NCBI GenBank assembly: GCA_965218585.1
Contig: CBDCLE010000010.1
Coordinates: forward strand, 64,001-128,000
DNA length: 64,000 nt
Direction of reading: 5' to 3'
Source of the DNA: Terriglobia bacterium
Lineage (GTDB): Bacteria > Acidobacteriota > Terriglobia > 20CM-2-55-15
The position numbers and the translations under genes are program-made. This document shows positions 33,319 through 54,369 of this stretch, piece by piece (the first letter of the stretch is position 1; every line of letters begins with the position of its first letter). A model generated the notes under the pieces. The model was not told the origin of the DNA, did no database searches, and saw only the letters and a list, made by a program, of their open reading frames with translations.

Positions 33319-34697
33319 GAGGTCATTACAAAAGGTGTGTAAAAGTCATCAGGCGGCGGCCTTCGATTTCATCACGACTCTGATGCCGTCAGCGAATTGC
33401 TGACCATCATAGACCTCTTGTAAGAGTTCGGATCCTTTTAAGTGTCGCCAATTAAGTGTCGCCAAGCCTTCTCAGCGACACGTAGTAGCTTCCAGATCAT
33501 TGCCGTTGCATTCTCGACACGCTTGAATCGGCGAGCGGCGTTGGTGCGGAGGCGAACCATGTCGAAGGGCGATTCGACGATGTTGGTTGTTCTCAGATGC
33601 ACCCAGTGTTGTTTCGGGAACTCATAGAAAGTAATCATCCGGTCCCAGTCCCGCAACAGCGTCTCACCCGCTTTGGGATAGTTCTTCTCATATCGGCGGA
33701 CGAACTGATCCCGCTTTCGTTCGCAGGCCGCGCGGGAGTTCGCGAAGGCCATCCCATGAAGCAGCTGTCTGGCCGCGGGCTGCTCGGTCTTCGGCAGATG
33801 ATCGACCACGTTGATCGACTTGTGGTTCCAGCAGCGTTGTTCCTGGCCCTGGGGCTGTTGCTCGGCCAGCGCGGACCAGATGCCCAGGTGACCGTCCGCG
33901 ACAGTCAGCCGTCCCAGCTTCAGGTCCCGTCTCTGGAGATTGCGCAGAATGCGGCTCCAGGACTCCTTGTTTTTCCGCTGCCCGCTCTCACAGGCCAACA
34001 CCACTTTGCGCCCGTCTGACAAGGCTCCGATGATCACCAGCAATGCCGCTCGCTCTTTCGCGATCCCCGCTTTCACGTACAAGCCGTCTGCCCACTGGTA
34101 CACGACCTCGAGGCCGGACAGGTCCTGCTGGACCCACTCGTCATACTCCAACTGCCAGGTCGATTTCAGTCGTTGGATCGATGCTCGCGACAACGGAGCG
34201 CCAGCGCCAAGCAGTCCGCGCATGGCCTGCTCGAAGTCCCTTGTGGCCAGACCGTGGAGGTAGAGATCGGGAAGTAGCTCGCCCAGCTGTTTCGATTTCC
34301 GTCGAAAATACGGCAGGATCTGACTCTCGAACCGCTCGGCGGTGTTTCGAACCCGAGGTCGTCGAACCTCCATCGTACCGTTCATCATTGCGAAGCGTCG
34401 CGGCTTCCCGTGACCGTTCCGGTATCCTCGTCGATTCGGACTCCGCTCCGACTTTTCCCGACCCAGAAATTGAGTGACTTCGTCCTCGAGCAGCTCCTGT
34501 AGCCAGACTTGGACCCGGGATCGCGCCCAGTCCTCCAAACCTTCATACGCGTTCGTTGACGCCACTGATGCCGGTATGTTCTTCTTCTTCATGGGTGGTG
34601 TACCTTTCTCCCGGTTGCTGCCGGGATTGCTTAGGGTTTCGGATTCACCGAAAGCGTACACCGCCTTCTCTTTTTACACACCGATTGGAACGACCTC
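33319..34697 (-). mobile_element. Second IS256-family element
   Basis: IRs GAGGTC(A/G)TT..GGTGTGTAAAA at both ends. No TSD visible. Confidence 0.85.
33349..34592 (-). pseudogene. IS256 transposase frameshifted near the C-terminus
   Basis: WADGLY, DGHLGIW, QRCWNH, RTTNIVES. A 14-bp tandem duplication (33438-33465) cuts off the KGSELL...KAAA tail. Confidence 0.85.
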
Positions 34698-35443: not shown

Positions 35444-38325
35444 ATGGACAACACGAACAAGACACAACTCCAGCCGAAAGACACGGAACATATCCTCCGC
35501 TCCCTGGTCGAAGGGACTGCGAGCGTTACGGGAGATGCGTTTTTCTGTTCCGCTGTCGAACACCTCGCTTCTGTATTGGGCGTGAACTATGCCTTCGTCG
35601 GTCGCTTTGCGGACGATTCCAGGTCCACGGTCCAGTCTCTCGCGTTCTGGACAGGAAAGGGACTCAGCCCGCCTTTCTCGTATCCTCTTGAAGGAACACC
35701 CTGCGCCAAAGTGGTCGCCGGCAACGTTGCCCTCTATCAGGGGTTCTGGTGCAGACAGCCCAAGGGAATTGGCGATAATGGGATATGGCGCATCGCAAAA
35801 CGAAACGGAATCCTCTATTTGCCGGACGTTGGTTCGAAGACGACATCATTCTCCTCTGCCTTCGCTGGTATTTTCGCTTCAAACTCAGCTACCGGGATTT
35901 GGTCGTGATTCTTGGTGAGCGGGGCTTGTCGATTTCGCACACCACAATCTTGCGTTGGGTGGTTCGCTATGCCGAAACGTGCGAAAAGCGCTGGCGCCGA
36001 TTCGAGCGACCGGTAGGAGGGAGCTGGCGAGTCGATGAAACGTTCATCAAGGTTCGGGGCCAGTGGATGTATCTGTACCGCGCCGTGGATGGACAGGGCA
36101 ACACCGTGGAGTTCTATCTGAGTCGAACACGCGGCATTGCTGCAGCGAAGGCATTCTTTCGCAAGGCACTGAAGCATCATCCGGAGCCACACAGCATCAC
36201 CCTGGATGGCCACCGGCCGAGCCATAGCGCGTTACGTCGCATAGGAATGAACGGGGATTTCAACTTCCGGGGACGGAACCCGGTGAAGATTCGTTGCTGT
36301 CAATACCTGAACAACGTGGTGGAGCAGGACCACCGCCGGGTGAAGGGGCGATTGCGGCCGATGTTGGGATTCAAGACGTTCTACAATGCGCGACGGGTGA
36401 TTACCGGCATCGAGCTGGCGCAGAAGATCCACAAACGCCAGTTCGCAATTCCGATCACATTGCAGTCGAATCCTGCGGTGATCTGGCGTCACGTCATGGC
36501 AGCATAGTCCGCATCGCTGCGGCACACTCCTGGTCTTATCGCTCCGACAATCCTATCTGCACCAGAACCCTATCAGGACAACGTCGCCACTCTTTTCCCC
36601 GACGATCAGGTACTCATTAACCTCGACGTGCGAAGCTATCTGGGCGTTCCTATCTACGGTGCTGAAGGCTTTGTCATCGGCCATGTTGCCGTTCTCGACA
36701 CCAAGCCCATGGAGGATTACGAGTGGACTCAATCGGTCCTCAAGATATTTGCCTCGCGTGCAGGGGCGGAAATGGACCGCCAGGAGATGGAGCGGAAGCT
36801 CCAGGAGGCCGTCGACCGCTACGCCCTCGCTACGAGCTCTGCCGAGGTCGGGGTGTGGGACTGGAACATTGAAACGAATGAGTTCTATCTGGACCCCAAC
36901 ATCAGAGCAAGGCTCGGTTTCGCGGAAGAGGAAGTCGCGACTACTGCGAAGGGTTGGTTAAAGCACGTTCATCCGGAAGATCGCGACCGGATAACGGAAG
37001 TAGCGCGTGCATGTGTCGATGGGGAAATCCCCGAATACGAACTCGAACACCGCTCGATTCACAAGGACGGTTCCGTGAGATGGTCTCTGGTCCGGGGACG
37101 AGTGATTCGGGATGGTGGGGGTCTCCCCGTTCGCATGGTTGGCACAAACACCGACGTCACTGATCGCAAGCAACTTGAATCACAACTGTTTCAGGCGAAG
37201 AAGATGGAAAGCGTCGGCCTTCTGGCCGGGGGAATCGCGCATGACTTCAACAACCTTCTGACCGTTATCCTGGGACTCACAAGAGAAATACAAAACGAAG
37301 ACGAGAACGAACTTTCAGACGAAATCGGTGACATTCAACATGCTGCTGAACGCGCGGCTCTTTTGACACGCCAGTTACTGGCATTCAGCCGCCGCCAGAT
37401 TCTGCAACCAAAAGTCCTCGAGCCCAACCAACTCATAACAAATCTCGTTGGCCTCGTTGAAAAGCTCCTGGGAGAAGACATTCAAGTCGTCACGAACCTC
37501 GATTCCGACATCGGCTATGTCAAGGCCGACCCCGTCCAGTTGGAACAGATCGTCATGAACCTTGCGGCTAATTCCCGCGACGCCATGCCGGAAGGAGGAC
37601 AGGTAACGATAGAAACGGGCAATGTCGATTTCGATGCCCAGTTTGTTAAGACCCATCCTGGAAGCAATGAAGGCTCCTTTGTCAGAATCCGATTAAGAGA
37701 CGAAGGTGTCGGTATGGATCAGGCCACGCTGGACCGCATCTTTGAGCCGTTTTTCACGACCAAGGATTCTCGTGCGGGTACCGGCCTCGGACTCTCTATG
37801 GTTTACGGAATCGTGAAGCAGAGTGGGGGTTACGTAAAGGCCGACAGCGAGCCGGAGGGCGGAACTGCCTTTGAGGTCTACCTTCCGCGAGTGGAAAAGG
37901 CGAGTACTGTATCCGAAGCCACCGCACCTGTTACGCAGCAGGGCGCCGAGACCGTCCTTCTGGTTGAAGATGAACCCTCTCTCAGACGGTTCGTGCGGAA
38001 AGCCCTGGAACATGCGGGCTATACGGTTCTGGAAGCCTCAAACGGCGAAGATGCCCTCGCCGTGTTCCGAGGGCGCGAACAAGAGATCCAGGTCATTCTC
38101 ACCGATGTCGTTATGCCCAAACTCGGAGGCACGCAGCTCGTCGAGCAGATCCGGAAATCGCGCCCTGAAATCGGCGCTGTATTCATGTCCGGTTATACGA
38201 ATCAAGCTCACAAACACCCGCCATCAACCGACCCATCGTCGGCGTTCATTCAGAAACCTTTTGGCATCGAGGAACTCACCGCGAAGCTTCGAGGTGTGAT
38301 CGACGAAGTTCACAGCAAGGCCTAG
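35444..38325 (+). pseudogene. GAF-PAS hybrid histidine kinase/response regulator interrupted by IS6
   Basis: The GAF domain rejoins in frame (ALYQ/DNVATLFPDD). PAS domain, H-box AHDFNNLL, FFTTK..GTGLGL, receiver LTDVVMP. Confidence 0.88.
35742..36569 (+). mobile_element. IS6-family element, complete (transposase 35785-36507)
   Basis: IRs GGTTCTGGTGCAGA. 8-bp TSD CTATCAGG at 35734-35741 and 36570-36577. WRVDETFIKV, YLNNVVEQDHR. Confidence 0.95.
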
Positions 38326-38531: not shown

Positions 38532-39788
38532 ATGTCGTCCCCAGCAGACCTGAACCTAGAGCTCTCGAGAGCCGTCGACCGCCTGACGCGTATCGTAGAT
38601 GCGACCAAGCTGCTCAACTCCACCCTTGACCTGTCGGAGCTGACGCGAATCATTCTGCAGATCGTTCGTGACGAAGTTGGTGTGGAGCGGGGGACGGTAT
38701 TCGTTGTTTCCGAAGACGGTGAGTGGCTGCGTTCTCTCGTCGCGCAGGAAGTCGACGAAGAGATCGAGATCCGCGTCGGATCGGGTATCGCCGGTGCTGT
38801 TGCCGAGTCGGGCAAGGTCATCGACATCGATAACCCCTACGAAGACTCCCGGTTTGACAAGAGCTTCGACGCCCAGCTCGGTTTTCGAACCCGCGATATC
38901 TACTGCATGCCGGTTCGCAATCGCGAAGGCACGACCGTCGGCGTACTTCAACTGCTCAACCGGAGCCGACCGCTGATACAGCCAGATAAGGATTTTCTCG
39001 CCGGCATCTCGATCCACATCGGACTCGCCTTGGAAAAAGCCGCGATGCATCATTACCTCGTCGAGAAAAAACGCATTGAACGAGAGCTGGATCTGGCCCG
39101 GGAAATACAGCAGGAGTTTCATCCGAAGCTTCCCGAATCCCATGGGGGCGTCCAGATCGCCGGCTCTTCCAAGATGTGTTACGAGGTCGGAGGTGATTAC
39201 TTTTCGTTTTTCCCGATCGATGAAGAGGGACGTTTCATCGTTATGCTCGGAGACGTCTCGGGCAAAGGGATCGGGGCAGCACTGGTCATGACCTCAGTCC
39301 ACGCGATGTGTCGCGCAGTGGTCAAACACGTCCACTCACTGGAACAGATCACGTATGTCCTCAATGAGATGCTTATTGAATCAACCAAGCAACAGACCTA
39401 CCTGACGCTCCAGATTGCTCTCGTGGATCCGGTCAAAAGACGCATCCACCTCATCAGTGCCGGCCACAACCCGCCCATCATGGTCGACGGGTCCGGCATC
39501 GTCCATCTTCTGAAGGAGGGTGGGGGTCCGCCCGTAGGCATGCTTCCGGGAATCCGTTACCACCGTGAGCTGATCGACGTTGATCCTGGAGCCGTGTTGG
39601 TTTTTTACACGGACGGAGTCAGTGAAGCCGAAGAGCAATTTGAAACCGATCGTCTCTCGATCGTCATCAGGCAGAACAAGGATGAATCAGCGACCATGAT
39701 TCATGACGCGATACGCGACGCGTTAGCTGAATTTGTGGGTCAGACTCCGGCAAACGATGACAGCACGATGGTCGTCCTCAAATTCTAG
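38532..39788 (+). CDS. GAF + PP2C (SpoIIE/RsbU-type) phosphatase
   Basis: GGDYF, GDVSGKG, YTDGVSEA, DDSTM. Confidence 0.92.
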   Translation: MSSPADLNLELSRAVDRLTRIVDATKLLNSTLDLSELTRIILQIVRDEVGVERGTVFVVSEDGEWLRSLVAQEVDEEIEIRVGSGIAGAVAESGKVIDIDNPYEDSRFDKSFDAQLGFRTRDIYCMPVRNREGTTVGVLQLLNRSRPLIQPDKDFLAGISIHIGLALEKAAMHHYLVEKKRIERELDLAREIQQEFHPKLPESHGGVQIAGSSKMCYEVGGDYFSFFPIDEEGRFIVMLGDVSGKGIGAALVMTSVHAMCRAVVKHVHSLEQITYVLNEMLIESTKQQTYLTLQIALVDPVKRRIHLISAGHNPPIMVDGSGIVHLLKEGGGPPVGMLPGIRYHRELIDVDPGAVLVFYTDGVSEAEEQFETDRLSIVIRQNKDESATMIHDAIRDALAEFVGQTPANDDSTMVVLKF

Positions 39789-40171
39789 TGCCCCTTCCCT
39801 TTTGGAATTTCGTTCTTGGTGTCATCCGGCTGCGTTGCATTGCCTGTCTTGAAGGAGCGGTTTTCGACGGACTCTTCAAAGCGCGACGGCGGTGTGGCCA
39901 CTGTGGTTACTTCTTCGCACGTGAAAGCGGCTACTTCCTGGGCTCGGCCTATATCGGCTATGGCGCCGCAATCGCCGTTGCGATCGGAACGTGGTTCGTT
40001 CTGGGGTACCTCATGGGCATGGGCTGGACTTGGCCCGTCCTGGCAGTTCTTCTCCTGGTGGTCTCAGTTTTCCCCATCTGGTTCTTCCGATATTCGAGAA
40101 TGATGTGGATGGCGCTGGATATGTATCTCAATCCCCCCGTAAAGGAAGATTTCCAGTCACGAGGACGGTAA
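39788..40171 (+). CDS. DUF983-like small membrane protein
   Basis: CxxC..CxxCG, RESGYFLG, two TM helices. Confidence 0.75.
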   Translation: MPLPFWNFVLGVIRLRCIACLEGAVFDGLFKARRRCGHCGYFFARESGYFLGSAYIGYGAAIAVAIGTWFVLGYLMGMGWTWPVLAVLLLVVSVFPIWFFRYSRMMWMALDMYLNPPVKEDFQSRGR

Positions 40172-40236
40172 CGCTGACTTGCGGGCACTCGAAGCGGCAG
40201 CTTAAAATGGTCGCCTCGCCTCGGAGGCGGATACAA

Positions 40237-40309
40237 GGCCCCATCGTCTAGTGGTTTAGGACGTAGCCCTCTCAAGGCTAAAACACGGGTTCGACTCCCG
40301 TTGGGGCTA
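40237..40309 (+). tRNA. tRNA-Glu (CTC)
   Basis: GGCCCCA/TGGGGCT acceptor stem, anticodon loop CTCTCAA, GGTTCGACTCC. Confidence 0.95.
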
Positions 40310-40404
40310 TTCTTTTACGGCCACCATTCGGAGGCTCACGCCCATTTAAATCGTGTAGGTGGGGCCGGGTGCGGCCCCAGTGATGGGAGGCGTATCCGAC
40401 CCTT

Positions 40405-42240
40405 CTACTCGTCAATCAGAATGACGTCAATGTTGTCACTGTAGAGCTGTTCCACGAGAGAGTGCCGCTGCTCCAGTACGGCACGCTGATTGACGTAGCC
40501 TTTGTCCGTAATTTCGCCGGCATCTATATCGAGTGGTTGGGTCAGCAGCATGACGCGGGCAACAGAGCTGCTTGAAGCCGGATTCGCCGCGTTGTATTTT
40601 GCGAGGCTGGTCCGCAGATGCGTCTCCAACGTGATTTGGTTGACGAGCTCCGTTAGTTCAGTATCCGGGGCGTTGCCACACAGCTCACAAATTCCTGCGA
40701 TATTCGGTACGATCAGCAGGCCGATTTCATCTCGATCGTGTCCAGTCACAATGGCATCCTCGATGACTTCGGGACATGCGGAAATTGCAGCGGTTCTCAG
40801 TGTGCCGGTGCTGACCCATGAACCGGTCAGTAACTTGAAGTCTTCGGCGACACGGCCGTCAAACACGATTCCCTTGTTGGGGTGGTCCGGGTCCGCAAGT
40901 GTTCCGGCATCTCCTGTTTTGAAAAAGCCGTCGTCGTCGAACGCTTGCTGTGTCAGATCATCCCGTTTGAAATAACCAGGTGTGACGTTGGGTCCACTGA
41001 TCCGCAATTCGAGCTTTCCTTCGTTGGGCAGCATCTTGAGGTCCGTTCCCGGCACTGGCAGGCCGACTATGCGGGCGCGATCGACCGGGTAGTGGGTGCC
41101 GACTGCCAACGGTCCCGACTCTGTCAATCCCCAGCCTGACATCATGGCGACTTTGTAGCCCAGCGCAGCAATTGACAATGCCTCAATTCTTTCCCATAGG
41201 TCCTGCGGCAGTGCCGCCGCCGAGTGGAAAATCAAGTCGAGATTCGAGAAAAAGTGATCGCGAAAGTCTGCGTCCTGTTCCAGTAGCGGGACCAGCATCT
41301 GGTAGCCCCGCGGCACATTGAAGTAAAGCGTAGGTGTAATTTCCCGCAGATTTCGAACAGTGGTCCGAACCATCCCGGGAGCGGGTTTACCGCCGTCGAT
41401 GTACAGTGTTCCGCCGTTTCTAAGGATCAGGTTGAAATTGTGATTGCCGCCGAAAGTGTGATTCCAGGGGAGCCAGTCAACCAGTACCGGTCGGCGGCGG
41501 GCAATGAACGGCCACACTTGAGCGAGCGCCTGCTGATTCGAACAAAGCATGCGGTGCGTGTTGATGACACCCTTGGGCACGCCCGTCGATCCGGAGGTAA
41601 ACAGGATTTTCGCCACCGTGTCCGGATCGACCTGTGACAAGGCATCATCCACGGCCTGGGTCGCGGTCACGTTAGTCGATTCCTCGAGATCCATCGCGGT
41701 GACGATGTCGACACCGTCGAGATCGAGTGCGGTGAGCGCACTGCCAAACTCATCGGCGTCGGCTGCAAAAACGACTGAAGGTTCGACGAGGTCGAATATG
41801 AACTTGAGCTTGCTGAAGTCCTGCGACTTCAATGAATAGGAGGGCGACACCGGCACGGTGGGAACGCCGATAAACATTGCGGCCATTTGCAGTAGCGCAT
41901 TGGCGATGCTGTTTTCGGAAAGCAGCATTACTGGCCGCTCGGCGGAGATACCTCGATCCAGGAGAGACTGTGCTGTTGACCGGACAGAATCGAGTGCCTT
42001 CCGGTAGGAAATGTGATTCCAGTCCCCGTCGGCCGGGCGTTCGGCGAGAAACGTACGGTCCGGCGCTTTTTGGGCCCAGTCAACTAGCCAGCTACAGGTG
42101 TGGTCGGGGTAAGGCCCCAGCGCGATCGGCGATCGCAGTATGAATCCGCCGTCGGACAGCGATTCAACTTCGACCCGTGCAGGTGCGAATTCCGGTGCTG
42201 TGCGGCCAGTCACGTCGTTAAACGGACTCGGCGGCGACAT
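40405..42240 (-). CDS. fcs: Feruloyl-CoA synthetase-like acyl-CoA ligase
   Basis: FTSGSTGVPKGV, DWLPWNHTFGGNHN, FDGRVAEDFKL, EITDKGYVNQRAVL. Confidence 0.85.
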   Translation of the reverse strand: MSPPSPFNDVTGRTAPEFAPARVEVESLSDGGFILRSPIALGPYPDHTCSWLVDWAQKAPDRTFLAERPADGDWNHISYRKALDSVRSTAQSLLDRGISAERPVMLLSENSIANALLQMAAMFIGVPTVPVSPSYSLKSQDFSKLKFIFDLVEPSVVFAADADEFGSALTALDLDGVDIVTAMDLEESTNVTATQAVDDALSQVDPDTVAKILFTSGSTGVPKGVINTHRMLCSNQQALAQVWPFIARRRPVLVDWLPWNHTFGGNHNFNLILRNGGTLYIDGGKPAPGMVRTTVRNLREITPTLYFNVPRGYQMLVPLLEQDADFRDHFFSNLDLIFHSAAALPQDLWERIEALSIAALGYKVAMMSGWGLTESGPLAVGTHYPVDRARIVGLPVPGTDLKMLPNEGKLELRISGPNVTPGYFKRDDLTQQAFDDDGFFKTGDAGTLADPDHPNKGIVFDGRVAEDFKLLTGSWVSTGTLRTAAISACPEVIEDAIVTGHDRDEIGLLIVPNIAGICELCGNAPDTELTELVNQITLETHLRTSLAKYNAANPASSSSVARVMLLTQPLDIDAGEITDKGYVNQRAVLEQRHSLVEQLYSDNIDVILIDE

Positions 42241-43477
42241 CTTGCATCGCAGCACAGGCGCTTTCCAGTGCCGCGGAAATGTCTTCCTCTGTGACGACCG
42301 TGGATAGAGCCACCATTCCGCGGGGCGCGATAAACAGCCCATGATTCAGACACGCGACATGAAACTTGTCCATGAGACCTTCGTCTTCACGAACCACGGG
42401 CGAATCAGGTATCGAATCACTGAGGAAGAGGTTCAGGCATGAGCCGTGGTGATTGATTGCAAGTGGCAGGCCGTTTTTCTTCGCGATATCGATCAACCCG
42501 GCTTCGAGCGATTCCCTCAGCCGATGCATCTGCTCGATTCGCTCGACCGTCAATTCGCGAAGCGATATTTCGCCAGCCACCATCGTGACGGGGTTCGCAT
42601 TGAATGTCCCCGAATGAAAAAGTTTCAAGTCTGCGGGATCGAAAAGTTTCAGCAGTTCGGCACTTCCGCCGACTGCGCCGACCGGAAACCCACCTCCGAT
42701 GATTTTGCCGAGCATTGTCAGGTCTGGCCGGATACCGATGTCCGCCTGACAACCACCCGTACCGAATCGCAGCGTCAACACTTCATCGAGTACGAATAAC
42801 GCGCCGGCCTTGCGTGCTGCGGCCTGCACACGGTGAAGGAAACCCTCTCGAGCCTCAACGATTCCACCTGCGCCCTTCACGGGTTCCAGAAAGACGGCGG
42901 CAATTTCATCTCCATGCTCGCCGAGCACTGCCTCGAAGTCAGCCGGGTCGTTGTAAGTTGCCAGGTAAGTCAGCGGCCCCTCGTTGCCGAAAGATCCGAT
43001 TTCGAATTCGTGCAACGAACCGTGGTAGCCGTACCTGGCCATCAGTAGTTTCGATCCGCCCGTTATCTCCCGCGCGATAGTAAAAGCGAGTGCGCCGGCT
43101 TCGGATCCGGAATTGGTAAATCGAACCTGTTCGATGGAAGGCACACGGTCAACGATAGTCGCCGCAAGCTTTATTTGCGGCTCGTTGGCCGCCGCCCAAC
43201 TTGTGCCCCGACCGATCTGCTCTCTGACCGCCTCGACAATCGGCGGATAAGCGTGGCCATGGACAAGGGCGGTGTAGTTATTCAGCAGATCGAGGTAACG
43301 GTTACCATCGACGTCGTGGAAATAAGCGCCTTCGCCACGCTCAATCGTTAACGGATAGGGTGCCCAGAACGAAGCCTGGCGGGACGTGCCGCCCGGCATG
43401 AGCCGGCTGGCCTGGTCGTAGTTGCCCGCGCTTGATCTGGTGCGTTTGCGATAGGCTGCATAAATGGGTGAGGTCAT
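42218..43477 (-). CDS. Class III PLP aminotransferase (GSAM-like, beta-phenylalanine transaminase-like)
   Basis: PGGTSR..FWAPYPLTIERGEG, RFTNSGSEA, DEV, LGKIIGGGFPVGA, HSGTFN. Confidence 0.8.
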   Translation of the reverse strand: MTSPIYAAYRKRTRSSAGNYDQASRLMPGGTSRQASFWAPYPLTIERGEGAYFHDVDGNRYLDLLNNYTALVHGHAYPPIVEAVREQIGRGTSWAAANEPQIKLAATIVDRVPSIEQVRFTNSGSEAGALAFTIAREITGGSKLLMARYGYHGSLHEFEIGSFGNEGPLTYLATYNDPADFEAVLGEHGDEIAAVFLEPVKGAGGIVEAREGFLHRVQAAARKAGALFVLDEVLTLRFGTGGCQADIGIRPDLTMLGKIIGGGFPVGAVGGSAELLKLFDPADLKLFHSGTFNANPVTMVAGEISLRELTVERIEQMHRLRESLEAGLIDIAKKNGLPLAINHHGSCLNLFLSDSIPDSPVVREDEGLMDKFHVACLNHGLFIAPRGMVALSTVVTEEDISAALESACAAMQDVAAESV

Positions 43478-43496
43478 CTGTGGCACTTCGCAGGTT

Positions 43497-44732
43497 TCAG
43501 TTACTCGCCACGGACACGACGAGGGCCATGGCCGTGTCCCCCGCCGCGCAGCCGGTGAAAAGACCGCGCCCACCTCCGCGCATTACAAGTTCTTCGATCA
43601 GTTCGATAATCAGCCGCATTCCGGTCGGTGCCTGCGGATGGCCCCAGATTAGCGAGCAGCCGAAATTGTTCATATCTTCGAGGGATACTCCGGCTTCACG
43701 GGCGAAGATGATGTCGTTCACGGCAAACGGATTGTGCGTCTTGATAGCGTCCATGTCCCTGAATGACAGGTCCGCCCGTTCAAGTGCCGCATGGGCTGCG
43801 CCATAAGGTGCCTCCGGCATGAATCCCAATTGTGCGCGCGATTGGCCGGCACTCAGGATGCGAATTCGCACGGTATTATCAGTCGCTAGTTCGCGCGCCT
43901 GATCGCGGCGCGTGATTATCATGGCAGCGTTGCCATCAGCGGGATGCGTTTGGCCGCCAAACGTCACCGTACCGCCGTCGATTACGGGCTGAAGTTTTGC
44001 GAGGCCGTCGGCCGTTGACGCAAAAATCCCCTGATCGCCGTCGATCTCCTCGGCTGTCGTGCGAAATCGTGGGTCCGGAACTCGAAAAGGCAATTCTATG
44101 TACCGCTTCTGAAACGCACGGTTGTCGGCGAGCGCGTCTTTGTATTGCGCATATCGAAGCAGCACGACTTCGTGTTGCTCGGCTGTTGAAATCGAATGTT
44201 TGGCGGCAACGTTTTCAGCGGTCTGTATCATTGAGTGCCCACCGAGCGGATCGCACCCGAAGCTGTCGATTACGACGTCCTCGGTTACACCGGTACCTGC
44301 TGGCGCCTCTGGTGCGGGATAATAGGTGTGCGGCCCGTTCGAACAACGGTCGGTGGTTGCCGCCAAAACGGTTTGGGCAAGGCCGCTCGCGATTTCCATC
44401 GAAGCCAGGACCGATGCCCTTACGCCAGATGCACAGACTTGCGACACAGTTGGCCCCGGCGCTTGTGGCGCTCCGAGCAAACCCATGAACCAGGGTGTAC
44501 CGTAAAAAGACTGGTGTTGATAAACAGAGATGCCGAGCACGCCGGCATCAAATATTTTCGGATCAATGTTGCGCTTGTCGAGTTCCCGGCGGGCGACGTA
44601 AGCTGCGAACTTGACAGCGTGTAAGTGCTGCAGCGCGCCCTGCCAGCGCACGAACGGCGTAGACCAGTAACAGCCGTAGGGAATCTCAACCTGGTCAAAC
44701 ATTGCTCTTGCCTTTTCGGTAATTCGATTCAC
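43497..44732 (-). CDS. Thiolase family protein
   Basis: QVCASG nucleophile, HPADG, GHPQAPTG, C-terminal CAAG. Confidence 0.85.
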   Translation of the reverse strand: MNRITEKARAMFDQVEIPYGCYWSTPFVRWQGALQHLHAVKFAAYVARRELDKRNIDPKIFDAGVLGISVYQHQSFYGTPWFMGLLGAPQAPGPTVSQVCASGVRASVLASMEIASGLAQTVLAATTDRCSNGPHTYYPAPEAPAGTGVTEDVVIDSFGCDPLGGHSMIQTAENVAAKHSISTAEQHEVVLLRYAQYKDALADNRAFQKRYIELPFRVPDPRFRTTAEEIDGDQGIFASTADGLAKLQPVIDGGTVTFGGQTHPADGNAAMIITRRDQARELATDNTVRIRILSAGQSRAQLGFMPEAPYGAAHAALERADLSFRDMDAIKTHNPFAVNDIIFAREAGVSLEDMNNFGCSLIWGHPQAPTGMRLIIELIEELVMRGGGRGLFTGCAAGDTAMALVVSVASN

Positions 44733-46312
44733 GCGTCCCAGTCAAGATCACCGTCCGGCAGCGCTTCGAGCAGGCGGCCGTTCCGCAGTAAGGTTGCGGC
44801 AGCCTCGATGTGATCGGTCAGCGATTCATCGTGATCCAGGTAGGGAACCACCTCACGAACCATATTGTAAATCTTGCGCGTAACGGTACTCAATAGCCGA
44901 GCGCCACCGTCGCGCTGGTCCACTGCCTGGCAGGCACACATGAGTTCAACTGCGGGCACCGCGTAGCTGATGTTGAGCATGTCGCGCGCACGCCGCGCCG
45001 CAACCAGTCCCATGGACACGTGATCCTGGAAATCTCCGGTCGTGGTCAGCGTCTGGATCGAGACCGGATGACAAAGCGATCGCATTTCAGCCATGATCGA
45101 GGACGCACAATACTGGATTCCCATCAGGCCGTGACGAATGCCAGGGTCCTCCTTGCAGAGGAAGGGCGGCAAGCCGTTATTATGGAAAGGATCGAGATAA
45201 CGATCGATCCGCCGGTCGTGCAGATTACAGGCATTTGTCAGTGCGATCGAAATGTGGTCCATCGCCTGGCTGACATACTGGCCATGAAAATGTGCATTGT
45301 GGAATGCATCGCCTTCCTCGACGATGACGAGGGGATTGTCGTTGGTGGAATTGATTTCGATTTGCAGGGTGCGGTCAGCCTGCCAGAGCGCATCCACCGA
45401 CGGGCCCAGAATCTGAGCGCCGGCGCGTAGCGAGTAAGCGTCTTCAATCTGTTGATCCATACCCTGCACTTCACCGGTCCGCATCGATGATAGCCAGACA
45501 TCAACTTCCTCGTCCTGCACGACCATCTTGCTGTCGCCGAGCGCCGTCCAGATCGCATCTGCCACTTTGAGCTGCCCGGGGTGGGGTTTGTTGCGATGTA
45601 CCGCTGGGTGGTAGGGCATGATTTTGCCGCGCAGTGCTTCGAGCGTTAGTGCTGCCACCAATGCGGATTGTTTCAGCAGTTTCTTCGTGCGATAGATGAC
45701 CGGCACCGCGACACCGACCATCATCGAAGTGCCATTGATCATGGCGAGGCCTTCCTTGTAAGAAAGCCGTGCAGGCTCGAGGCCGGCGCGTTTCAGGGCC
45801 TCTCCTCCGGGCATGATTTCGCCGTCGTATTTGGCACGCCATGCGCCGGTGACGACCAGCGCGATATGCGCGAGCGGCCCGAGATCGCCACTCGCACCGA
45901 GGGAGCCTTGCTCCGGAACGCATGGAACGATGCCCGCGTTATAAACAGCAATGTACTTCTCGAAGTTTTCGGGACTGATGGCCGACACACCGCGGCCGAG
46001 CGAGTTGATGCGGCAAAGCATCGCCGCGCGCACATAGACGTCGTCGAGATCATCGCCGACATTCGTCGCAACTCCTCGCAGAATGTTGTTCTGCAGTTTT
46101 TCGGCCAGTTCTTCGGGAATGAGGTAGTTGACGAATCCGCCGACAGCAGTAGTCACTCCATAGATTGTTCGTCCCGACTTTACGAAGCCATCCAGAAGGT
46201 CGCGCGATGCTTTTACGCGCGCAGCCTGTTCAGTAAAAATGTCGACCCTGGTGTTCTGTTGCGCAGCTTCTGCCAGCTGATCAACCGTCAGTGTGTCGCC
46301 GTCAAGATGCAT
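44729..46312 (-). CDS. MIO-dependent aromatic amino acid aminomutase/ammonia-lyase (AdmH/EncP-like)
   Basis: YGVTTAVGGFVNY, LQNNILRGVATNVG, GSLGASGDL (MIO), DAYSLR, NDNPL, FHGQY. Confidence 0.88.
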   Translation of the reverse strand: MHLDGDTLTVDQLAEAAQQNTRVDIFTEQAARVKASRDLLDGFVKSGRTIYGVTTAVGGFVNYLIPEELAEKLQNNILRGVATNVGDDLDDVYVRAAMLCRINSLGRGVSAISPENFEKYIAVYNAGIVPCVPEQGSLGASGDLGPLAHIALVVTGAWRAKYDGEIMPGGEALKRAGLEPARLSYKEGLAMINGTSMMVGVAVPVIYRTKKLLKQSALVAALTLEALRGKIMPYHPAVHRNKPHPGQLKVADAIWTALGDSKMVVQDEEVDVWLSSMRTGEVQGMDQQIEDAYSLRAGAQILGPSVDALWQADRTLQIEINSTNDNPLVIVEEGDAFHNAHFHGQYVSQAMDHISIALTNACNLHDRRIDRYLDPFHNNGLPPFLCKEDPGIRHGLMGIQYCASSIMAEMRSLCHPVSIQTLTTTGDFQDHVSMGLVAARRARDMLNISYAVPAVELMCACQAVDQRDGGARLLSTVTRKIYNMVREVVPYLDHDESLTDHIEAAATLLRNGRLLEALPDGDLDWDA

Positions 46313-46964
46313 GCTTGTCCCCTTTTCTTTGCGCTTACGCATTCTAGGACAGTTTAATGAGGCATATTTATCTATCTTCTGTCAGTTTAGCGAACTGATG
46401 CCGATCCGGGGGTTGATTGCCGCCCGGGCGCAATTGGGGGCGGTTCACACGCCGCCACTCTGATTCGGGTCCCCGGCGTACCGGGCTTCACGTACAATCA
46501 TCGAACCGTGACGATCAATTCATTCCGCCGTGTCCTTGACGTTCGATTTGGCGACTAAGAACATGAAGAAGACAATTGCTGACTGGGACCATGTAACTCC
46601 GGAAATGGATGCTTCCTTGGCCGGAGGCGATCCTTCCGGCTGGACGCGGAACGGGTGCCCGGTCCCGTAGCGATTAGCAACAAAAGCTGTATTTCAGGAC
46701 AGCGAACAGACTGAATGGAGGTTTATCCATGACCAAGCCTGAATTTCAGAATGATTCCGACGCGATTCGGAATGCATGCAAACTGCTTATGACAGCGGCA
46801 AACTCTTCCGACGCCGACCTATGGGCGTCGCTGTACACACCAGATGCGGTCTTAATGCCGCCCAATCTGCCGTCACTGAATGGGCCCGAAGTGTTAATTT
46901 GCACGGAAAAGTGATCCGGGTTTTGCATTGAAAATTGACCCGGGTTAGAGAGCCGGATTATGGC

Positions 46965-47744
46965 TCATGGGTTGGGGTTTTTCCGGGGTTTAGTCTCCTT
47001 TGTGTGTGTGGAACTGTTTCTAAAACGGTAACTGTCATTGCCGGTTTCGACGATGTGGCAATGGTGGGTGAGGCGGTCGAGCAGCGCGGCGGTCATCTTC
47101 GTGTCGTTGAAGACCCGGGGCCATTCACCGAAGGCAAGGTTGGTGGTGAGGACCCTGCGGGTGCGCTCGTAGAGTTTGCTCAGCAGGTGGAACAGCAAGG
47201 CGCCGCCGGCCTGCGAGAACGGCAGATAGCCGAGTTCATCGAGAATGACCAAATCGACTTGCAGGAGCCGGTTGGCGATCTGCCCAGTCTTACCCTTGGC
47301 TTTCTCCTGTTCCAGCGTGTTGACGAGTTCGATAGTGGAGAAGAACCGGACTCTGAGGCGATGGTGAGTGATGGCCTGCACGCCGATGGCCGTGGCGAGA
47401 TGGGTCTTGCCGGTGCCCGGTCCGCCGATCATCACGATGTTGTGAGCGTCGGCGACGAAGTCACATCGATACAGTGAGCTGAGCAGTGCCTCATCAACGG
47501 GGCTTTCATTGAAGTCGAAGTTGGAGAGGTCGCGATAGGCTGGGAAGCGGGCGGTCCTCATCTGGTAGTTGATGGAGCGGACCTCGCGCTCGGCGACCTC
47601 GGCCTCGGTTAAGGTGTGGAGCATGGGCTCTATGTTTGAGAAAGCCGGAGCGCCTTGCCGCGCGAGTTCATCGACCGCTTGCGCCATGCCATGGAGTTTG
47701 AGCGACCTCAGCGCGCTGACCAGAGATTCAGATGACATGGCCAT
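46965..47744 (-). CDS. istB: IS21 helper ATPase IstB
   Basis: [24 protein letters not shown]. Confidence 0.93.
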
Positions 47745-49177
47745 CTCCTCTCAAGCGGTCGTAGCGATGAACATCGGCCTTCGGTTCATTGAGCAGTGTC
47801 AACGCATCGGGTATATCGATGAGGCTGGGCGGCGAGGCTTCCAGTAACCGGCTCAGGATATTGAGCACATGTTGCTTGGAGGCGGCCCCGGCTGCGAGTG
47901 CGATCTCGGCGGCACGCAGCACCGCCGGCTCATCGTGGTGCAGCACCAGCGCCAGGATCTCCACCATCTCCCGGTCCCCGCCAGGTCGCTTGAGCCGCGC
48001 CGCCTGGAGGCGCTTGAAAGGTTGGGGAAGCTCGGCGAAGGGAGCGCCGTTCCTCAACGCGCCCGGTTTTCGTTGGAGGACGCTCAGGTAGTGGCGCCAG
48101 TCGTAGACGGTTCGCCCTGACCGGCAGTCGCGCCCGCGCGCGATCACCCGCGGATGCTCAGCGATGACCTGGCCTTCGGCGGCAATCACGATGCGTTCGG
48201 CGTAGACGCGGACACTGACCGGCCGGTTGGCAAACGCGGCCGGCACGCTGTAGCGATTACGCGCGAAGGCGATAAGGCAGGCCGGAGAAACACGCTTGGT
48301 GTGCTCGACAAAGCCATCGAACGGCGTCGGCATGCGCATCAGATGCGCGTGCTCATCGGCCCAGACCTCGGCGACTGTACGCTGGGGCTGCTCCGGGTGA
48401 TGGATCTCGTCCCAGAGACCCCGGCATCGCCGCTCAAGCCACACGTTCACGTCACGGAAGCCAGCAAACTCAGGCGCGTCATGGAACAGACGGGGCCGCG
48501 CGTCCCGGACGTTCTTCTCGATCTGGCCTTTCTCCCATCCGGCGCCAGGCGTGCAGAACTCCGCTTCGAACAGGAAATGGCTCACCATCGCCTTGAACCG
48601 GGCGTTGACCACCCGGGCCTTCCCTCGGCCCACTCGGTCCACCGCTGTCTTCATGTTGTCGTAGATGCCCCGCCGGGGCACACCGCCCAACGCCGCCAGA
48701 CAATAGTTGTGGGCGTCGAACAGCATCTCGTGGGACTGTAGCGGATAAGCCCGCAGCATGAACGCCCGGCTGTGGCAGAGTTTGAACTGCGCCACCATCA
48801 GCTTCGTGCGTTCACCGCCGATGACCACCCAGTCCTCGCTCCAGTCGAACTGGAACGCTTCGCCGGGCGCAAACACCACGGTCATAGGACCCCGTGTAGC
48901 CAAGCTTCATCAACTCGCCGTGCAGCTGCTTGAGATTACGCAGCTCCTTGCGACCCCGGGCCGATTCCCGCTTCAGCCACGACGCCAGCAACTCGGCGTA
49001 GCCGTCCACTTTGCTCCGGCTCCTGCGCTTCGGATAGACCGCCTCCAGAGCGCCGCTCGCCAAGTGCTTCCGGATCGTATTGCGCGACAGCTTCGTTCGC
49101 CTGCTGATCTCTCGAATCGATACGCCCTCTCGTACATGCCAGCGTCTGATCACACTCAATATCGCCACGTCTATCAC
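47728..49177 (-). pseudogene. istA: IS21 transposase IstA with an internal deletion/frameshift near 48880
   Basis: The N-terminal HTH (to GYTGSYDR) and the catalytic part (FAPGEAFQFDW, YDNMKTAV, WEKGQIE) are in different frames. Confidence 0.85.
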
Positions 49178-49751
49178 TCCTTTGCCCTCCTGCTCTGTTA
49201 ATCGGCAGGAATGGGTATACACGTGGGTCAAATTTCGATGCAAATACCCGCTTTAAGTGGATCAGTTTTGGGTGCAAATCAACACCCGAAGAGATCCGGG
49301 ACTATATGGCTAAAGAGTTTTTTGGCCCTTTCGATGTGACAATGACGGATCAGACCGACGAGTTGACGATCGTTGGCGACTTGGCGGTTAGAAGGGGTGT
49401 AGGGACCGTGACTCTTGTGCCTAAGACCGGAGGACCTGCTATCGAAGAGACTTTCAAATACTTAGAGTCCTGGGGGCGAGGGCCGGACGGTTCGTGGAAG
49501 ATCACGCAGGACATCTTCAATAGCAGCAAGCCAGCGGAGTGAATGCAGCCGAGATGGGTTTATGCCTGAAGGAACGCCTGCCGGTGCAGTAATTTGCGAG
49601 TTCAAGTCCTAGAAATCATCTTCTCGGACGTCGAGAATCGGGGGCTCGATGAGAAAATGATGGGAAGAACGATGAGAAAAAGCAGAACCCCGATAATTTT
49701 CAGCCACTTGGAAAGCCATTCGACTCCCGTTGAGGCTATTTTCGGAAGAAG

Positions 49752-50804
49752 CTAAGGCTGCTCGACAAAATCCCCACGCGGAATCGTTCCCAACTGCCGG
49801 ACAATCGCCCGCCGTCCATAAGCGTTCGAAATCCAGTTCTCAAACAGCGCCGGAATGCCGGGACCTAATCCAGGGTCGGAGCCGCTCATCGCGTGGAAAT
49901 GTATGTGGGGTTCGACTGAATCGCCGGAGTTGCCGACCTCACCGATGGGCTCCCCTGCCAGAACCTGCTCTCCGACACCCACTCTCATACCCCCTGGGCG
50001 CATATGCGCGTAATAGGTGTAGAGGCTTTTGCTGTGGCGAATGACAATGGCGTTGCCCCCTGGCGTGGCCGCCATGGCCTGGCCCGGGACGTTTTCAGGG
50101 ATGTCATTTCGCATGTAGACGACTTCCCCGTCGGCCGCGGCAAGTACGTCCAGACCGTAGGCAAAGTAATCGCTGTTGCGACCGCCGGTGCCTCCATAGC
50201 TCTTGCCATCAGAACCGATCTTGAGAAAGTCATAGGCAAATGCTTCGGCCACGAAACGCTTGTGGTTATCCAGGGCACTATGTTCCGCCGCCAGGTACCA
50301 GCTACCGTCGAAGGGCAGGCGGCCAACAAAGCTGTCTATTGCCGTTAATGGAATTGATACCTTGCTGGAAGCAACGTCCTCGCCCTGGCGGAACTCTGTC
50401 TCGACGATCAGGGTCTGGCCCATCAAACCCGACGGCAACTCAAAGGAAACATCCGAAAGCGCTTTCCTTTCATTCGACCCCAAAACAAGGGTACCCGGGG
50501 GTGTCGCTTCGATACGGCGGCGTTCCACCGAGTTATCAAAGAGCTCGATCAGAGCCGGGCCTGAGAACTGGCCGGAAACGACACCTCCCGCAGTCCCGAC
50601 TAGATCAAACCGTACCCACTGAAATTCAATCGGCTCGGAAGAGGTATTGTGGAATATGAGATGGAAGAAAACTCTCTCGACAGGAACAATATCGCCGCCC
50701 AGATCTTCGACGTATACCGAGGCCGGGAGGACCGAAATGTCCACCTGAGCCGAAGCGGAGACGGCAAAAACAAAGACCAGGCACAATGCAATGGGTATGC
50801 GCAT
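49752..50804 (-). CDS. Secreted M23 family peptidase
   Basis: Signal peptide, AYDF, YAHM, GNSGDS..PHIHF. Confidence 0.88.
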   Translation of the reverse strand: MRIPIALCLVFVFAVSASAQVDISVLPASVYVEDLGGDIVPVERVFFHLIFHNTSSEPIEFQWVRFDLVGTAGGVVSGQFSGPALIELFDNSVERRRIEATPPGTLVLGSNERKALSDVSFELPSGLMGQTLIVETEFRQGEDVASSKVSIPLTAIDSFVGRLPFDGSWYLAAEHSALDNHKRFVAEAFAYDFLKIGSDGKSYGGTGGRNSDYFAYGLDVLAAADGEVVYMRNDIPENVPGQAMAATPGGNAIVIRHSKSLYTYYAHMRPGGMRVGVGEQVLAGEPIGEVGNSGDSVEPHIHFHAMSGSDPGLGPGIPALFENWISNAYGRRAIVRQLGTIPRGDFVEQP

Positions 50805-51410: not shown

Positions 51411-52257
51411 GGGGTCAGAGCCCTATTTCTCCATTTACCCCGCCATCTCATGATCCAGAATCGATTCATTTTTACTCGCTGGACGACCACGTTTGCGTGG
51501 GCGGATTCTTCGGCCCAAACGGCCTTCCAATTCGAGTACAAAGCGCTCAGAACCCCAAGGTCGCCCTGAAAGCGTCTGACTGCGGATCAGAGATGTCTTC
51601 TCGGCCGACTCACCTTCTTCGAGCCAGGCAGACCAATCTTTTGGCCATGAACCGGGTGGAAATTCGTCCGTAAGTAGCGTATCGAGTCGTATTCCACAGT
51701 GAGCGCCCGCACTAGACCATTCGTAATCTTCCGCACGGGGAACAATCCCTGCACGAACAGGATTGAGTTCGACATACCTCACAGCATTTCGAAGGTGATT
51801 GGCATCCAACACGCACGAAAAGAAACGCCCTTGCCAGAGATGACCAACGGCACCATACGTCCAATTGAAATACGTAGCGTAAGCGCTATGAGCATCCCGG
51901 ATCGTTGCGGGCAATGAATTTTCATCTTCCGGTACTCCTACCAAATGGACGTGATTTCTCATCAGAACATAGGCCCAGATACCCAATCTGTGTCGCTCGG
52001 CATATTCCCCGAGCAAACGCATGTAAATTTCACAGTCTCTAGAGTCATTGAAAGTCGCCGTTCGTCGGTTTCCGCGTTGGGTAATGTGATGAGGAAGACC
52101 GGGAACGACCACTCGAGTAAATCGCGGCATAATTTTTTTAGGGCTGAAATCGAGGAGGGCTGGCAAAATAAAAAGCAATTCGCCGTTTAACACAAGAGGT
52201 TTTGCGAGTTCCTGTAAAAGCTGTAAGGAGAAATTGGGGAATTAGGGCTCTGACCCC
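51411..52257 (-). mobile_element. RAYT-like Y1 (HUH) transposase (CDS 51435-52130) flanked by 15-bp inverted repeats
   Basis: HHITQRGN, MRNHVHL, GHLWQGRF, YVELNPVRAG. GGGGTCAGAGCCCTA at 51411-51425 is inverted at 52243-52257. Confidence 0.85.
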
Positions 52258-52650: not shown

Positions 52651-52818
52651 TGCGTATTCCGGTCGATCGTGATCACTGATTCCGATCCAAGGTGATCAGC
52701 AATTCCGGGATTGTGATCACTGATTCCGGTCATCATGATCACCGATTCCGGCGATCATGATCACCCGTCGATAGCGAAGTTTTACCTGCTAGGTTCTCCT
52801 TACAGGAAGGAGAACTTG

Positions 52819-54369
52819 ATGGGAGCAAAACGGCTATCGATGAGACAGTCACGCGAGATTCTACGATTCAAATACGAACAGGAACTCAGCCACCGGGCCA
52901 TCGCCCGAGCCTGCCGAGTGGGAGTCGGGACGGTATCGGAGTACGTCCGACGAGCGGCAGAGGCGGGGCTGGAATGGCCGCTTCCAGAGGATCTGGACGA
53001 TGCAGCCCTGGAAGCGCGGCTGTTTCCCCACGCGGGACCAGGCTCGAGGGAACGAGTGCCTCCGGATTTGGAACGGATCCACCAGGAGTTGAAGCGTGTG
53101 GGAGTCACGCTGCACCTGCTGTGGGAAGAGTACCGGGAAGCGCATCCGGAAGGATATGCCTACAGCCAGTTCTGTGAGATCTGCCGGCGTTGGGCCCAGA
53201 AACTGAAGCCCTCGATGCGACAGGTGCATCGCGCCGGAGAGAAGGCCTTCATCGACTTTTCCGGCAAACGGCCGCAGCTGACGGATCCACACACGGGCGA
53301 AGCTGTTGCAGTCGAGTTGTTCGTGGCCGTGCTGGGCGCCAGCGGTTACACCTATGCCGAAGCGACTCCGAGCCAGAAACTCCCCGACTGGGTCGGTGTG
53401 CATATCCGCATGGTGGAGTTCTTCGGCGGATCGAGCCGGATCTGGGTTCCCGACCAACTCAAGAGTGCGATTACCCAGTCCTGCCGCTATGAAGCCGGCG
53501 TGAACCGCACCTGCCAAGATGCGGCCGAACACTACGGCGCAGTCGTCATTCCGGCCCGACCACGGAAACCCCGGGACAAGGCCAAGATCGAATCAACCGT
53601 CCTTCTGGCGCAGCGCTGGATTCTGGCGAAGATCAGGAATCGAACATTCTTCAGTCTGGCAGACTTGAACGAGGCGATCCGGGAGTTGCTGGTGGAACTG
53701 AACCAGCGGCCAATGCAAAAGCTTCGAGTGTCCCGTCTGGAACTCTATGAGCGACTGGATCGACCGGCATTACAGTCACTGCCGACCCACCGATATGAAC
53801 AGGCCGAATGGAAGGACTGTCGGGTCAACATCGACTACCACATTAGCGTGGATCGCCATCCTTACAGCGTGCCCTACCAGTTGATCCACCAGACGCTGGA
53901 AGCCCGTTACACCGCGTCCATTGTCGAGGTGTACCACAAAGGCCGGCGCGTCACCTCTCATCGCCGCCGCTACGATCACCAGCCCTCGACACTATCGGAA
54001 CATATGCCCAGTGCCCATCGGGCCCATGCGGAATGGACCCCGTCCCGGCTGATCCATTGGGCCCAGCAGACCGGCCCCAAGACCGGCCGCCTGGTCGAGG
54101 AGATCATGAAACGGTGGCCGCATCCGGAACAGGGGTACCGGGCCTGTCTGGGATTGATGAGTCTGGGGCGCCGTTCCGGCGCCGAGCGGCTCGAAGCCGC
54201 TAGCGCACGGGCACTGCACTTGCGGTCCTATAGCTACCGCACCGTCAAGAACATCCTGTCCTCGGCCCAGGACCGGTTGCCGTTCGAGGAAACCGAAACC
54301 CCACCCACACCCCATCACGACAACATTCGCGGCGCCGCCTACTATGCGGATCCGGAGGAGACGCACTGA
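52819..54369 (+). CDS. istA: IS21 transposase IstA
   Basis: GEKAFIDFSG, VPDQLKS, KPRDKAKIE, YSVPY. Confidence 0.93.
   Translation: MGAKRLSMRQSREILRFKYEQELSHRAIARACRVGVGTVSEYVRRAAEAGLEWPLPEDLDDAALEARLFPHAGPGSRERVPPDLERIHQELKRVGVTLHLLWEEYREAHPEGYAYSQFCEICRRWAQKLKPSMRQVHRAGEKAFIDFSGKRPQLTDPHTGEAVAVELFVAVLGASGYTYAEATPSQKLPDWVGVHIRMVEFFGGSSRIWVPDQLKSAITQSCRYEAGVNRTCQDAAEHYGAVVIPARPRKPRDKAKIESTVLLAQRWILAKIRNRTFFSLADLNEAIRELLVELNQRPMQKLRVSRLELYERLDRPALQSLPTHRYEQAEWKDCRVNIDYHISVDRHPYSVPYQLIHQTLEARYTASIVEVYHKGRRVTSHRRRYDHQPSTLSEHMPSAHRAHAEWTPSRLIHWAQQTGPKTGRLVEEIMKRWPHPEQGYRACLGLMSLGRRSGAERLEAASARALHLRSYSYRTVKNILSSAQDRLPFEETETPPTPHHDNIRGAAYYADPEETH

Follow-up and report, generated by a model that had tools for sequence, protein, structure and literature searches.

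A putative aminomutase-initiated operon for the conversion of phenylalanine to benzoyl-CoA, on an island beside an IS21-family element in a Terriglobia bacterium

Canonical anaerobic degradation of phenylalanine (Phe) proceeds by way of phenylpyruvate, phenylacetaldehyde and phenylacetate. To our knowledge, this is the only anaerobic bacterial route from Phe to benzoyl-CoA that is known in detail, and its enzymes are oxygen-sensitive and metal-dependent. Benzoyl-CoA is also reached by beta-oxidative routes initiated by a phenylalanine ammonia-lyase (PAL), as with EncP/EncH/EncI/EncJ in Streptomyces maritimus and the Phe catabolism of Desulfobacula toluolica. Among the enzymes with a 4-methylideneimidazole-5-one (MIO) group, AdmH serves andrimid biosynthesis and EncP enterocin biosynthesis, each of the two having both lyase and mutase activity, and all characterised members of the AdmH-like MIO clade that we know of come from secondary metabolism. 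The present study concerns an operon of four genes, encoding an AdmH-like MIO enzyme, a thiolase, a class-III aminotransferase and an acyl-CoA ligase, in a 64,000-nucleotide stretch of the genome of a Terriglobia bacterium (assembly GCA_965218585.1, contig CBDCLE010000010.1, positions 64,001 to 128,000), referred to here as the window. Judging from its sequence, the operon is probably catabolic and would convert L-Phe to benzoyl-CoA and acetyl-CoA with no redox step and no need for oxygen.

The route proposed for this operon consists of four steps. The MIO enzyme would shift the amino group of L-Phe to give (S)-beta-phenylalanine (beta-Phe), the class-III transaminase would hand this amino group to a 2-oxo acid with formation of benzoylacetate, the ligase, which resembles feruloyl-CoA synthase (Fcs), would spend one ATP to form benzoylacetyl-CoA, and the thiolase would cleave the latter with CoA into benzoyl-CoA and acetyl-CoA. 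In most of the related bacteria, a regulator of the Lrp type would control the operon and the product would enter the benzoyl-CoA reductase or the Box pathway. The proposal was built on enzyme families, active-site residues, gene linkage and co-occurrence, from which the substrates, the mutase outcome and the order of the second and third steps were inferred. An earlier note on this DNA had put forward the same succession of mutase, transaminase, ligase and thiolase, and comparative genomics supports it as a candidate pathway. Of the chemistries that would employ all four enzymes and end at benzoyl-CoA, it is the simplest. Like the phenylacetate route, it would lead from L-Phe to benzoyl-CoA in bacteria that possess benzoyl-CoA reductase. 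That route, however, passes through several redox and decarboxylation reactions, and the side-chain carbons are lost on the way, whereas the proposed one would be redox-neutral and keep two of these carbons as acetyl-CoA. The Enc and Desulfobacula routes also employ an MIO enzyme, a CoA ligase and a thiolase between Phe and benzoyl-CoA, but they depend on hydratase and dehydrogenase steps and involve no transaminase, the reverse of what the window operon encodes.

The four genes occupy positions 40405-46342 of the minus strand as intact open reading frames (ORFs), in the 5' to 3' order MIO enzyme, thiolase, aminotransferase and AMP-forming ligase (Table 1). Likely starts at M11 for the MIO enzyme, M33 for the transaminase and M35 for the ligase were chosen from homologue lengths and from their positions in ortholog alignments, M11 yielding a protein of 527 residues, the same length as its homologues. 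Given these starts, the MIO gene shares 4 nt with the thiolase gene and the transaminase gene shares 23 nt with the ligase gene, and a gap of 19 nt separates thiolase from transaminase. All four products have strong Pfam matches (Lyase_aromatic, E-value 1.7e-161; Thiolase_N, 2e-23, and Thiolase_C, 2e-16; Aminotran_3, 3e-55; AMP-binding, 8e-54). The tight coupling of four genes described in the earlier note thus holds, the genes being intact and overlapping or nearly abutting, and the span it assigned to them, 40405-46312, is exact, running from the ligase stop codon to the M11 start of the MIO gene. A scan of positions 39700-47100 returned four promoter-like and nine terminator-like sites, no excess over the 3.3 and 7.0 found in shuffled sequences.

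The first enzyme matched PF00221 at 538.5 bits (gathering score 27.3), covering the whole profile (1-466 of 466). Its top NCBIfam model was TIGR04475, 'phenylalanine aminomutase (D-beta-phenylalanine forming)', with 715.5 bits, the next being HAL with 479.6. The nearest solved structure was AdmH of Pantoea agglomerans (PDB 3unv, 561 bits), followed by a tyrosine aminomutase (333 bits). This reference ranking by hidden Markov model and PDB scores, used in place of a tree with AdmH, EncP, HAL and TAL, bears out the nearness to AdmH that had been claimed from two motifs and one residue. In the HMMER alignment with 3unv, the motifs GGFVNY and VATNVG are identical letter for letter, and Val91 aligns with a Val in AdmH and with a His in SgTAM, a tyrosine aminomutase. 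This His we take to be the selector for Tyr. Residues Y61, V91, S151 and G152 are unchanged in all 46 MIO orthologues aligned. The triad reads A150-S151-G152 here, and position 150 is Ala in 24 orthologues and Thr in 22; an Ala/Thr-Ser-Gly triad and a catalytic loop Tyr are the defining residues of the MIO family. The enzyme is accordingly proposed as a putative L-Phe 2,3-aminomutase that would give (S)-beta-Phe. It shares with AdmH, its best full-length solved relative, the two motifs, the Val and the MIO Ser-Gly, but differs in scoring under the TIGR04475 cut-off and in a catabolic context of Lrp, transaminase, thiolase and benzoyl-CoA reductase (Bcr) genes in place of a cluster for nonribosomal peptide synthetases (NRPS) or polyketide synthases (PKS).

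The transaminase had been likened to the beta-Phe transaminases of Mesorhizobium and Variovorax, and its best four PDB matches are indeed enzymes acting on beta-amino acids or beta-Phe (6k8h, 288.5 bits; 6iz9, 270.4; 4ao9, 270.0; 2yku, 269.5), ahead of the best HemL entry (242.5) by a modest margin. Against the HemL model TIGR00713 it scored 290.8, below the equivalog cut-off of 527.3, and a true HemL (621.7 bits) is encoded on a separate contig, C8, of the same genome; by these scores, the operon transaminase is not the housekeeping HemL. Three residues recur in its orthologues: R65 (29 of 29), in the column of the P-pocket residue R36 of StoTA; K290 (29 of 29), the lysine binding pyridoxal 5'-phosphate; and R418 (28 of 29, with one gap), the switch Arg of a 'PRG' motif, according to the alignments. 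StoTA, the Sphaerobacter enzyme of 6k8h, is active on beta-Phe, and its R36 has been suggested as a possible holder of the substrate carboxylate (PMC10589169). For Paraburkholderia, it is established that beta-Phe is transaminated (S)-selectively to the beta-keto acid (PMC6150868). The (S)-selective enzymes VpAT (4ao9, Variovorax), MesAT (2yku and 6iz9, Mesorhizobium) and StoTA (6k8h) catalyse this conversion of beta-Phe (PMC6150868, PMC10589169). They resemble the operon transaminase both as top matches and in the Arg, Lys and Arg columns, but were discovered individually, as activities for nitrogen scavenging or biocatalysis, whereas here the gene lies in an operon with an MIO enzyme, a ligase and a thiolase.

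In the ligase, the Pfam domains AMP-binding and AMP-binding_C_3 were detected, and its best model was NF009232 (PRK12582), with 758.6 bits, the next model reaching 124.5. Its closest homologues are 611 residues long and 92-95% identical, and many relatives are annotated as feruloyl-CoA synthase in their sources, in keeping with the Fcs-like ligase recognised in the earlier note. The role proposed for it, that of a benzoylacetate-CoA ligase, is suggested by gene context. The thiolase carries Thiolase_N and Thiolase_C and reached no NCBIfam equivalog (best TIGR01930, 181 against 240.55), and a protein-cluster search with it returned generic 'thiolase family protein' clusters only. Its residues C100, N334, H365 and C395 align with the catalytic Cys, Asn, His and Cys and are unchanged in 15 of 15 orthologues. 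A precedent for the last two proposed steps is found in Aromatoleum aromaticum, in the lower pathway of acetophenone and ethylbenzene degradation (Bal and a thiolase), where benzoylacetate formed by acetophenone carboxylase is converted by a CoA ligase to benzoylacetyl-CoA and a 'so far unknown thiolase' yields benzoyl-CoA and acetyl-CoA (PMC4729919). The proposed steps share the chemistry of this pathway, but benzoylacetate, which arises there by carboxylation of acetophenone, would arise here from a beta-amino acid.

Conservation of the four-gene cluster, a check proposed in the earlier note, was examined by a pattern scan of species-representative genomes, in which 52 loci with an MIO homologue of 57-91% identity were retained; two further hits were left out as non-orthologous (L055, with 32% identity, and L056, a short fragment). 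All 52 loci come from metagenome-assembled genomes (MAGs), assigned to Woeseiaceae, other Gammaproteobacteria, several alphaproteobacterial groups, SAR324, 'Deltaproteobacteria' and Neomarinimicrobiota. Many of them end at contig breaks, and in 19 the MIO gene is flanked on either side by 5.5 kb or more. An orthologous transaminase lies within 8 kb of the MIO gene in 30 of the 52 loci (12 of the 19 with long flanks), a ligase nearby in 21 (8 of 19) and a thiolase in 20 (9 of 19). All four genes occur together in 11 loci, five of them among the 19. The common gene order is MIO-AT-THL-LIG (AT, aminotransferase; THL, thiolase; LIG, ligase), and the window shares the order MIO-THL-AT-LIG with its closest relative, locus L003. 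Clustering of neighbouring ORFs revealed a divergent upstream regulator of the Lrp/AsnC type in 24 of the 52 loci, whose best model is Lrp with a score under the cut-off; genes for a TRAP transporter and for hemerythrin also recur near the related clusters. In five further genomes, transaminase and ligase were both present in two and both absent from three. Transaminase and ligase behave as a module, and this covariation fits a ligase acting on the transaminase product better than one acting on cinnamate.

A second type of cluster was observed in L011, L014 and L017-L020 (SAR324, 'Deltaproteobacteria', Neomarinimicrobiota and other MAGs), where an MIO enzyme of 61-68% identity is accompanied by a distant class-III transaminase (35-37%), often together with an HbpS-like protein, a TRAP transporter, a 510-residue AMP-binding ligase and a short-chain dehydrogenase/reductase.

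That benzoyl-CoA would be the end product, as the earlier note had held, is supported by the genomes of the relatives. Genes for benzoyl-CoA reductase lie within 10 kb of the MIO gene in 8 of the 52 loci, and the subunits encoded next to the cluster exceed their cut-offs (BcrA, 672.7 against 578; BcrB, 788.4 against 486.55; BcrC, 640.6 against 421.15; BcrD, 426.2 against 312.85). Of 30 genomes with the cluster, 26 encode a BcrB that scores above its cut-off. As background, 151 genomes from the gammaproteobacterial order of one carrier contained BcrB in three, the MIO gene in four and both in two, a rough contrast and not a test, as the sample includes its central carrier and related genomes are non-independent. 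Of the four cluster genomes without BcrB, one has BoxB above the cut-off and another has it in three pieces. In the latter (G404; contigs C17 and C47), two of the pieces are neighbouring frames of the same contig and the third lies at the end of a contig, which suggests a frameshift or an assembly break. Seven loci (L003, L021, L024, L027, L036, L042 and L048) have a three-subunit molybdo-enzyme near the cluster, with 4-hydroxybenzoyl-CoA reductase alpha, beta and gamma as best matches, all under the equivalog cut-offs; some of these loci also contain an XdhC-like maturation gene. The molybdo-enzyme genes raised the possibility that Tyr is the substrate, which was judged less likely because the selectivity column is Val in all 46 orthologues and because the molybdo-enzyme scores stay below those cut-offs.

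The same neighbourhoods bear on the idea that the operon supplies beta-Phe or benzoyl-CoA for a natural product. The secondary-metabolic origin of the known members of the MIO clade, and the name of TIGR04475, would fit such a role. Pfam scans of 34 ORFs of the window, however, detected no NRPS or PKS domains, as had been noted before, nor do such genes occur among the conserved neighbour families. The conserved partners are instead the Lrp regulator, Bcr, Box and transporters, and a transaminase that takes off the beta-amino group would undo a supply of beta-Phe. A biosynthetic role is therefore considered highly improbable, and catabolism of L-Phe by the proposed route is preferred.

Several observations weigh against that route. 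The MIO enzyme and the ligase both fall short of the cut-offs of their best models (715.5 against an equivalog cut-off of 800 for TIGR04475; 758.6 against a subfamily cut-off of 777 for NF009232), the family name of the ligase refers to cinnamate-type acids, and lyases and mutases of the MIO clade are not separable by sequence (PMC5651878). The conservation of the cluster is also incomplete. In 8 of the 52 loci, transaminase and ligase genes are present with no thiolase nearby, and, at the identity thresholds applied, transaminase, ligase and thiolase are all missing from 5 of the 19 long-flanked loci, though in three of these five (L011, L014 and L020) a distant class-III transaminase of 35-37% identity adjoins the MIO gene. 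Three relatives with an MIO enzyme 87-90% identical (G429, G579 and G580) have no transaminase or ligase orthologue in their assemblies. In two of these three, the Woeseiaceae MAGs with loci L004 and L054, a thiolase and bcr genes adjoin the MIO gene in the order Lrp-MIO-THL-hemerythrin-bcrDABC, with Lrp noted upstream in L004; the third carries locus L006. In MAGs of the L004/L054 type, the MIO enzyme may act as a lyase and supply a beta-oxidative route; alternatively, these assemblies (2.0-4.3 Mb) may lack part of the genome. Benzoylacetate, moreover, is a labile beta-keto acid (PMC6100204). Finally, in the window's own genome, which is 95.5% complete, the Lrp gene is absent at the operon, and searches for ring-degradation enzymes gave no match to BoxB, BcrB, AFOR/BamB-type enzymes or BenA and none over the cut-off to Oah.

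An alternative is a PAL route, similar to the Enc and Desulfobacula routes, in which the MIO enzyme would release cinnamate, the Fcs-like ligase would activate it, its beta-oxidation to benzoylacetyl-CoA for the thiolase would draw on hydratase and dehydrogenase genes located elsewhere, and the transaminase would have a side role. The feruloyl-CoA synthase name of the ligase family, the inseparability of lyase and mutase by sequence, the three relatives with an MIO enzyme and no transaminase (two of them with thiolase and Bcr genes) and an enoyl-CoA hydratase family (f30) in three or four related loci are all in line with it. That family is present in only these few loci, however, and the Pfam scans found no enoyl-CoA hydratase or hydroxyacyl-CoA dehydrogenase among the 34 window ORFs, an absence that the earlier note had used as an argument and that holds for the operon and its surroundings; neither activity is encoded in the operon, in the adjacent genes or by the conserved core families. 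A PAL route would also leave the transaminase, the commonest neighbour of the MIO gene, without a role. Furthermore, the three relatives lacking the transaminase lack the ligase as well, which indicates that the presence of the ligase follows that of the transaminase, not that of the MIO gene. Since relatives with the MIO gene but without transaminase and ligase exist, the PAL route keeps some weight, and it is regarded as quite unlikely for the window operon.

The lability of benzoylacetate leads to a different alternative, which retains the aminomutase and exchanges the second and third steps: the ligase would convert (S)-beta-Phe to beta-phenylalanyl-CoA, which would be transaminated to benzoylacetyl-CoA and cleaved by the thiolase. 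This order would bypass the free unstable keto acid (PMC6100204), and the covariation of transaminase and ligase is compatible with either order; an acyl-CoA beta-transaminase is known (PMC3149608). The operon transaminase, on the other hand, ranks with enzymes using free beta-amino acids, and its conserved Arg at the StoTA R36 column, a possible carboxylate holder (PMC10589169), is mildly contrary to a CoA-bound substrate. In Aromatoleum, free benzoylacetate is a normal intermediate (PMC4729919). Taken together, a ligase acting before the transaminase is considered unlikely, and the order with free benzoylacetate is retained for the proposed route.

The operon appears to be a foreign element in its genome. 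Nucleotide synteny with a genome of the same genus (L059) stops at position 40312 and restarts at 49761, and the segment 40441-46321 alone matches the gammaproteobacterial locus L003, with 82% nucleotide identity over 5889 bp. A search for the MIO gene in 35 genomes of the window's family and in a sample of 401 from its class gave a single carrier in each set, and both times this was the window's own genome. On this comparative evidence, it is concluded that the operon was horizontally acquired from gammaproteobacteria-like donors. A mis-binned contig was considered as the source of the foreign operon and rejected on account of two genes of the window. A GAF-SpoIIE phosphatase, encoded some 600 bp downstream, has counterparts of 81-89% identity in three out of four genomes of the same genus, and for QueA, encoded farther along, all four give 73-76%. 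Between the two ends of the synteny gap, the operon is accompanied solely by an IS21-family element (Pfam IstB_IS21, 266 bits; Mu-transpos_C_2, 68 bits), which occupies the site at which the relatives carry the divergent Lrp-type regulator. In four public sequencing runs, contig pieces cover the operon at low depth (word depth 2-5), and repeat-like flanks show depths of about 9-86 at 39835-40301 and 5-820 at 46840-49174; these two regions behave as repeats or as sequence common to abundant organisms. The same runs show loose contig ends at 40312 and 46942, with no bridging piece at the left junction, 40312, among the pieces listed. The borders of the island rest on this single assembly, because the listed pieces bridge neither junction.

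The acquisition also bears on what the operon does in its present host. It may be a recent passenger, silent or yielding only an amino group and acetyl-CoA, a reading that would qualify the others and is seen as possible, though rather doubtful. The native flanks of the island and its adjoining IS21 element, the restriction of the MIO gene to this one genome among the 401 of the class, the missing Lrp gene and the failure to find a ring pathway for benzoyl-CoA or benzoate in this genome are consistent with a passenger. The four frames are nonetheless intact with conserved catalytic residues, and, given the completeness of the genome, a sink pathway could sit in the missing part. Having arrived alone beside an IS21 element, the cassette may be idle or may supply the cell with nothing beyond nitrogen and acetyl-CoA; it may also have its sink in the unassembled part. 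As to the wider distribution, the balance of evidence somewhat favours a route, opened by an MIO aminomutase, that is widespread in Proteobacteria of marine sediment and pelagic habitats (Woeseiaceae, other Gammaproteobacteria and several alphaproteobacterial orders), and a mobile four-gene cassette that has crossed to an unrelated class beside IS21.

Each enzyme type and each reaction considered here is known, and their combination as a regulated catabolic operon tied to benzoyl-CoA is undescribed in the literature searched. A full-text search, for which subscription journals were mostly outside coverage and supplements were unopened, found no publication linking an aminomutase or beta-Phe to benzoyl-CoA catabolism, and nothing was found on the relation between benzoylacetate-CoA ligase and feruloyl-CoA synthetase. 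If the proposed route is correct, a phenylalanine aminomutase would for the first time have a catabolic function, and MIO aminomutases would gain a role in primary metabolism. As an alternative to the phenylacetate route, it would be redox-neutral and need no oxygen. Anoxic sediments receive aromatic amino acids as a major input, and the annotation of Phe turnover in abundant sediment bacteria such as the Woeseiaceae would change. The operon would furthermore offer a compact enzyme set for making benzoyl-CoA and (S)-beta-Phe.

Table 1. Genes of the operon, the island and other features of the window (positions in the window).
Feature	Position	Strand	Remarks
MIO enzyme, AdmH-like	44729..46312	-	ORF open to 46342; likely start M11 at 46312
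Divergent thiolase	43497..44732	-	Proposed benzoylacetyl-CoA thiolase
Class-III (fold type I) aminotransferase, beta-Phe type	42218..43477	-	ORF open to 43573; likely start M33
Fcs-like (PRK12582-type) acyl-CoA ligase	40405..42240	-	ORF open to 42342; likely start M35, 611 aa
Inserted island: operon and IS21-family element, 9.4 kb	40313..49760		Flanks native to genus
IS21-family element	46965..48903	-	istB 46965-47744, istA-like 47728-48903; directly upstream of operon
IS256/Mutator-family transposases	30701-31993, 33438-34661
IS6/IS240 DDE transposase	35785-36507
IS200-like Y1 transposase	51435-52193
Second IS21 element	52735-55130
370-aa ORF	25875-26987	-
682-aa ORF	56371-58419	-

The part of the window from 30700 to 55200 is very dense in insertion sequences (Table 1). 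The IstA-like ORF comprises 391 residues in the first IS21 copy and 544 in the second, and the shorter one may therefore be truncated or split. Two unusual domain combinations were observed in other parts of the window: the 370-residue ORF joins a FUR-family regulator domain to a C-terminal rubrerythrin/DUF2383-like domain, and the 682-residue ORF has N-terminal peptidase M50 and HlyD-type membrane-fusion domains.

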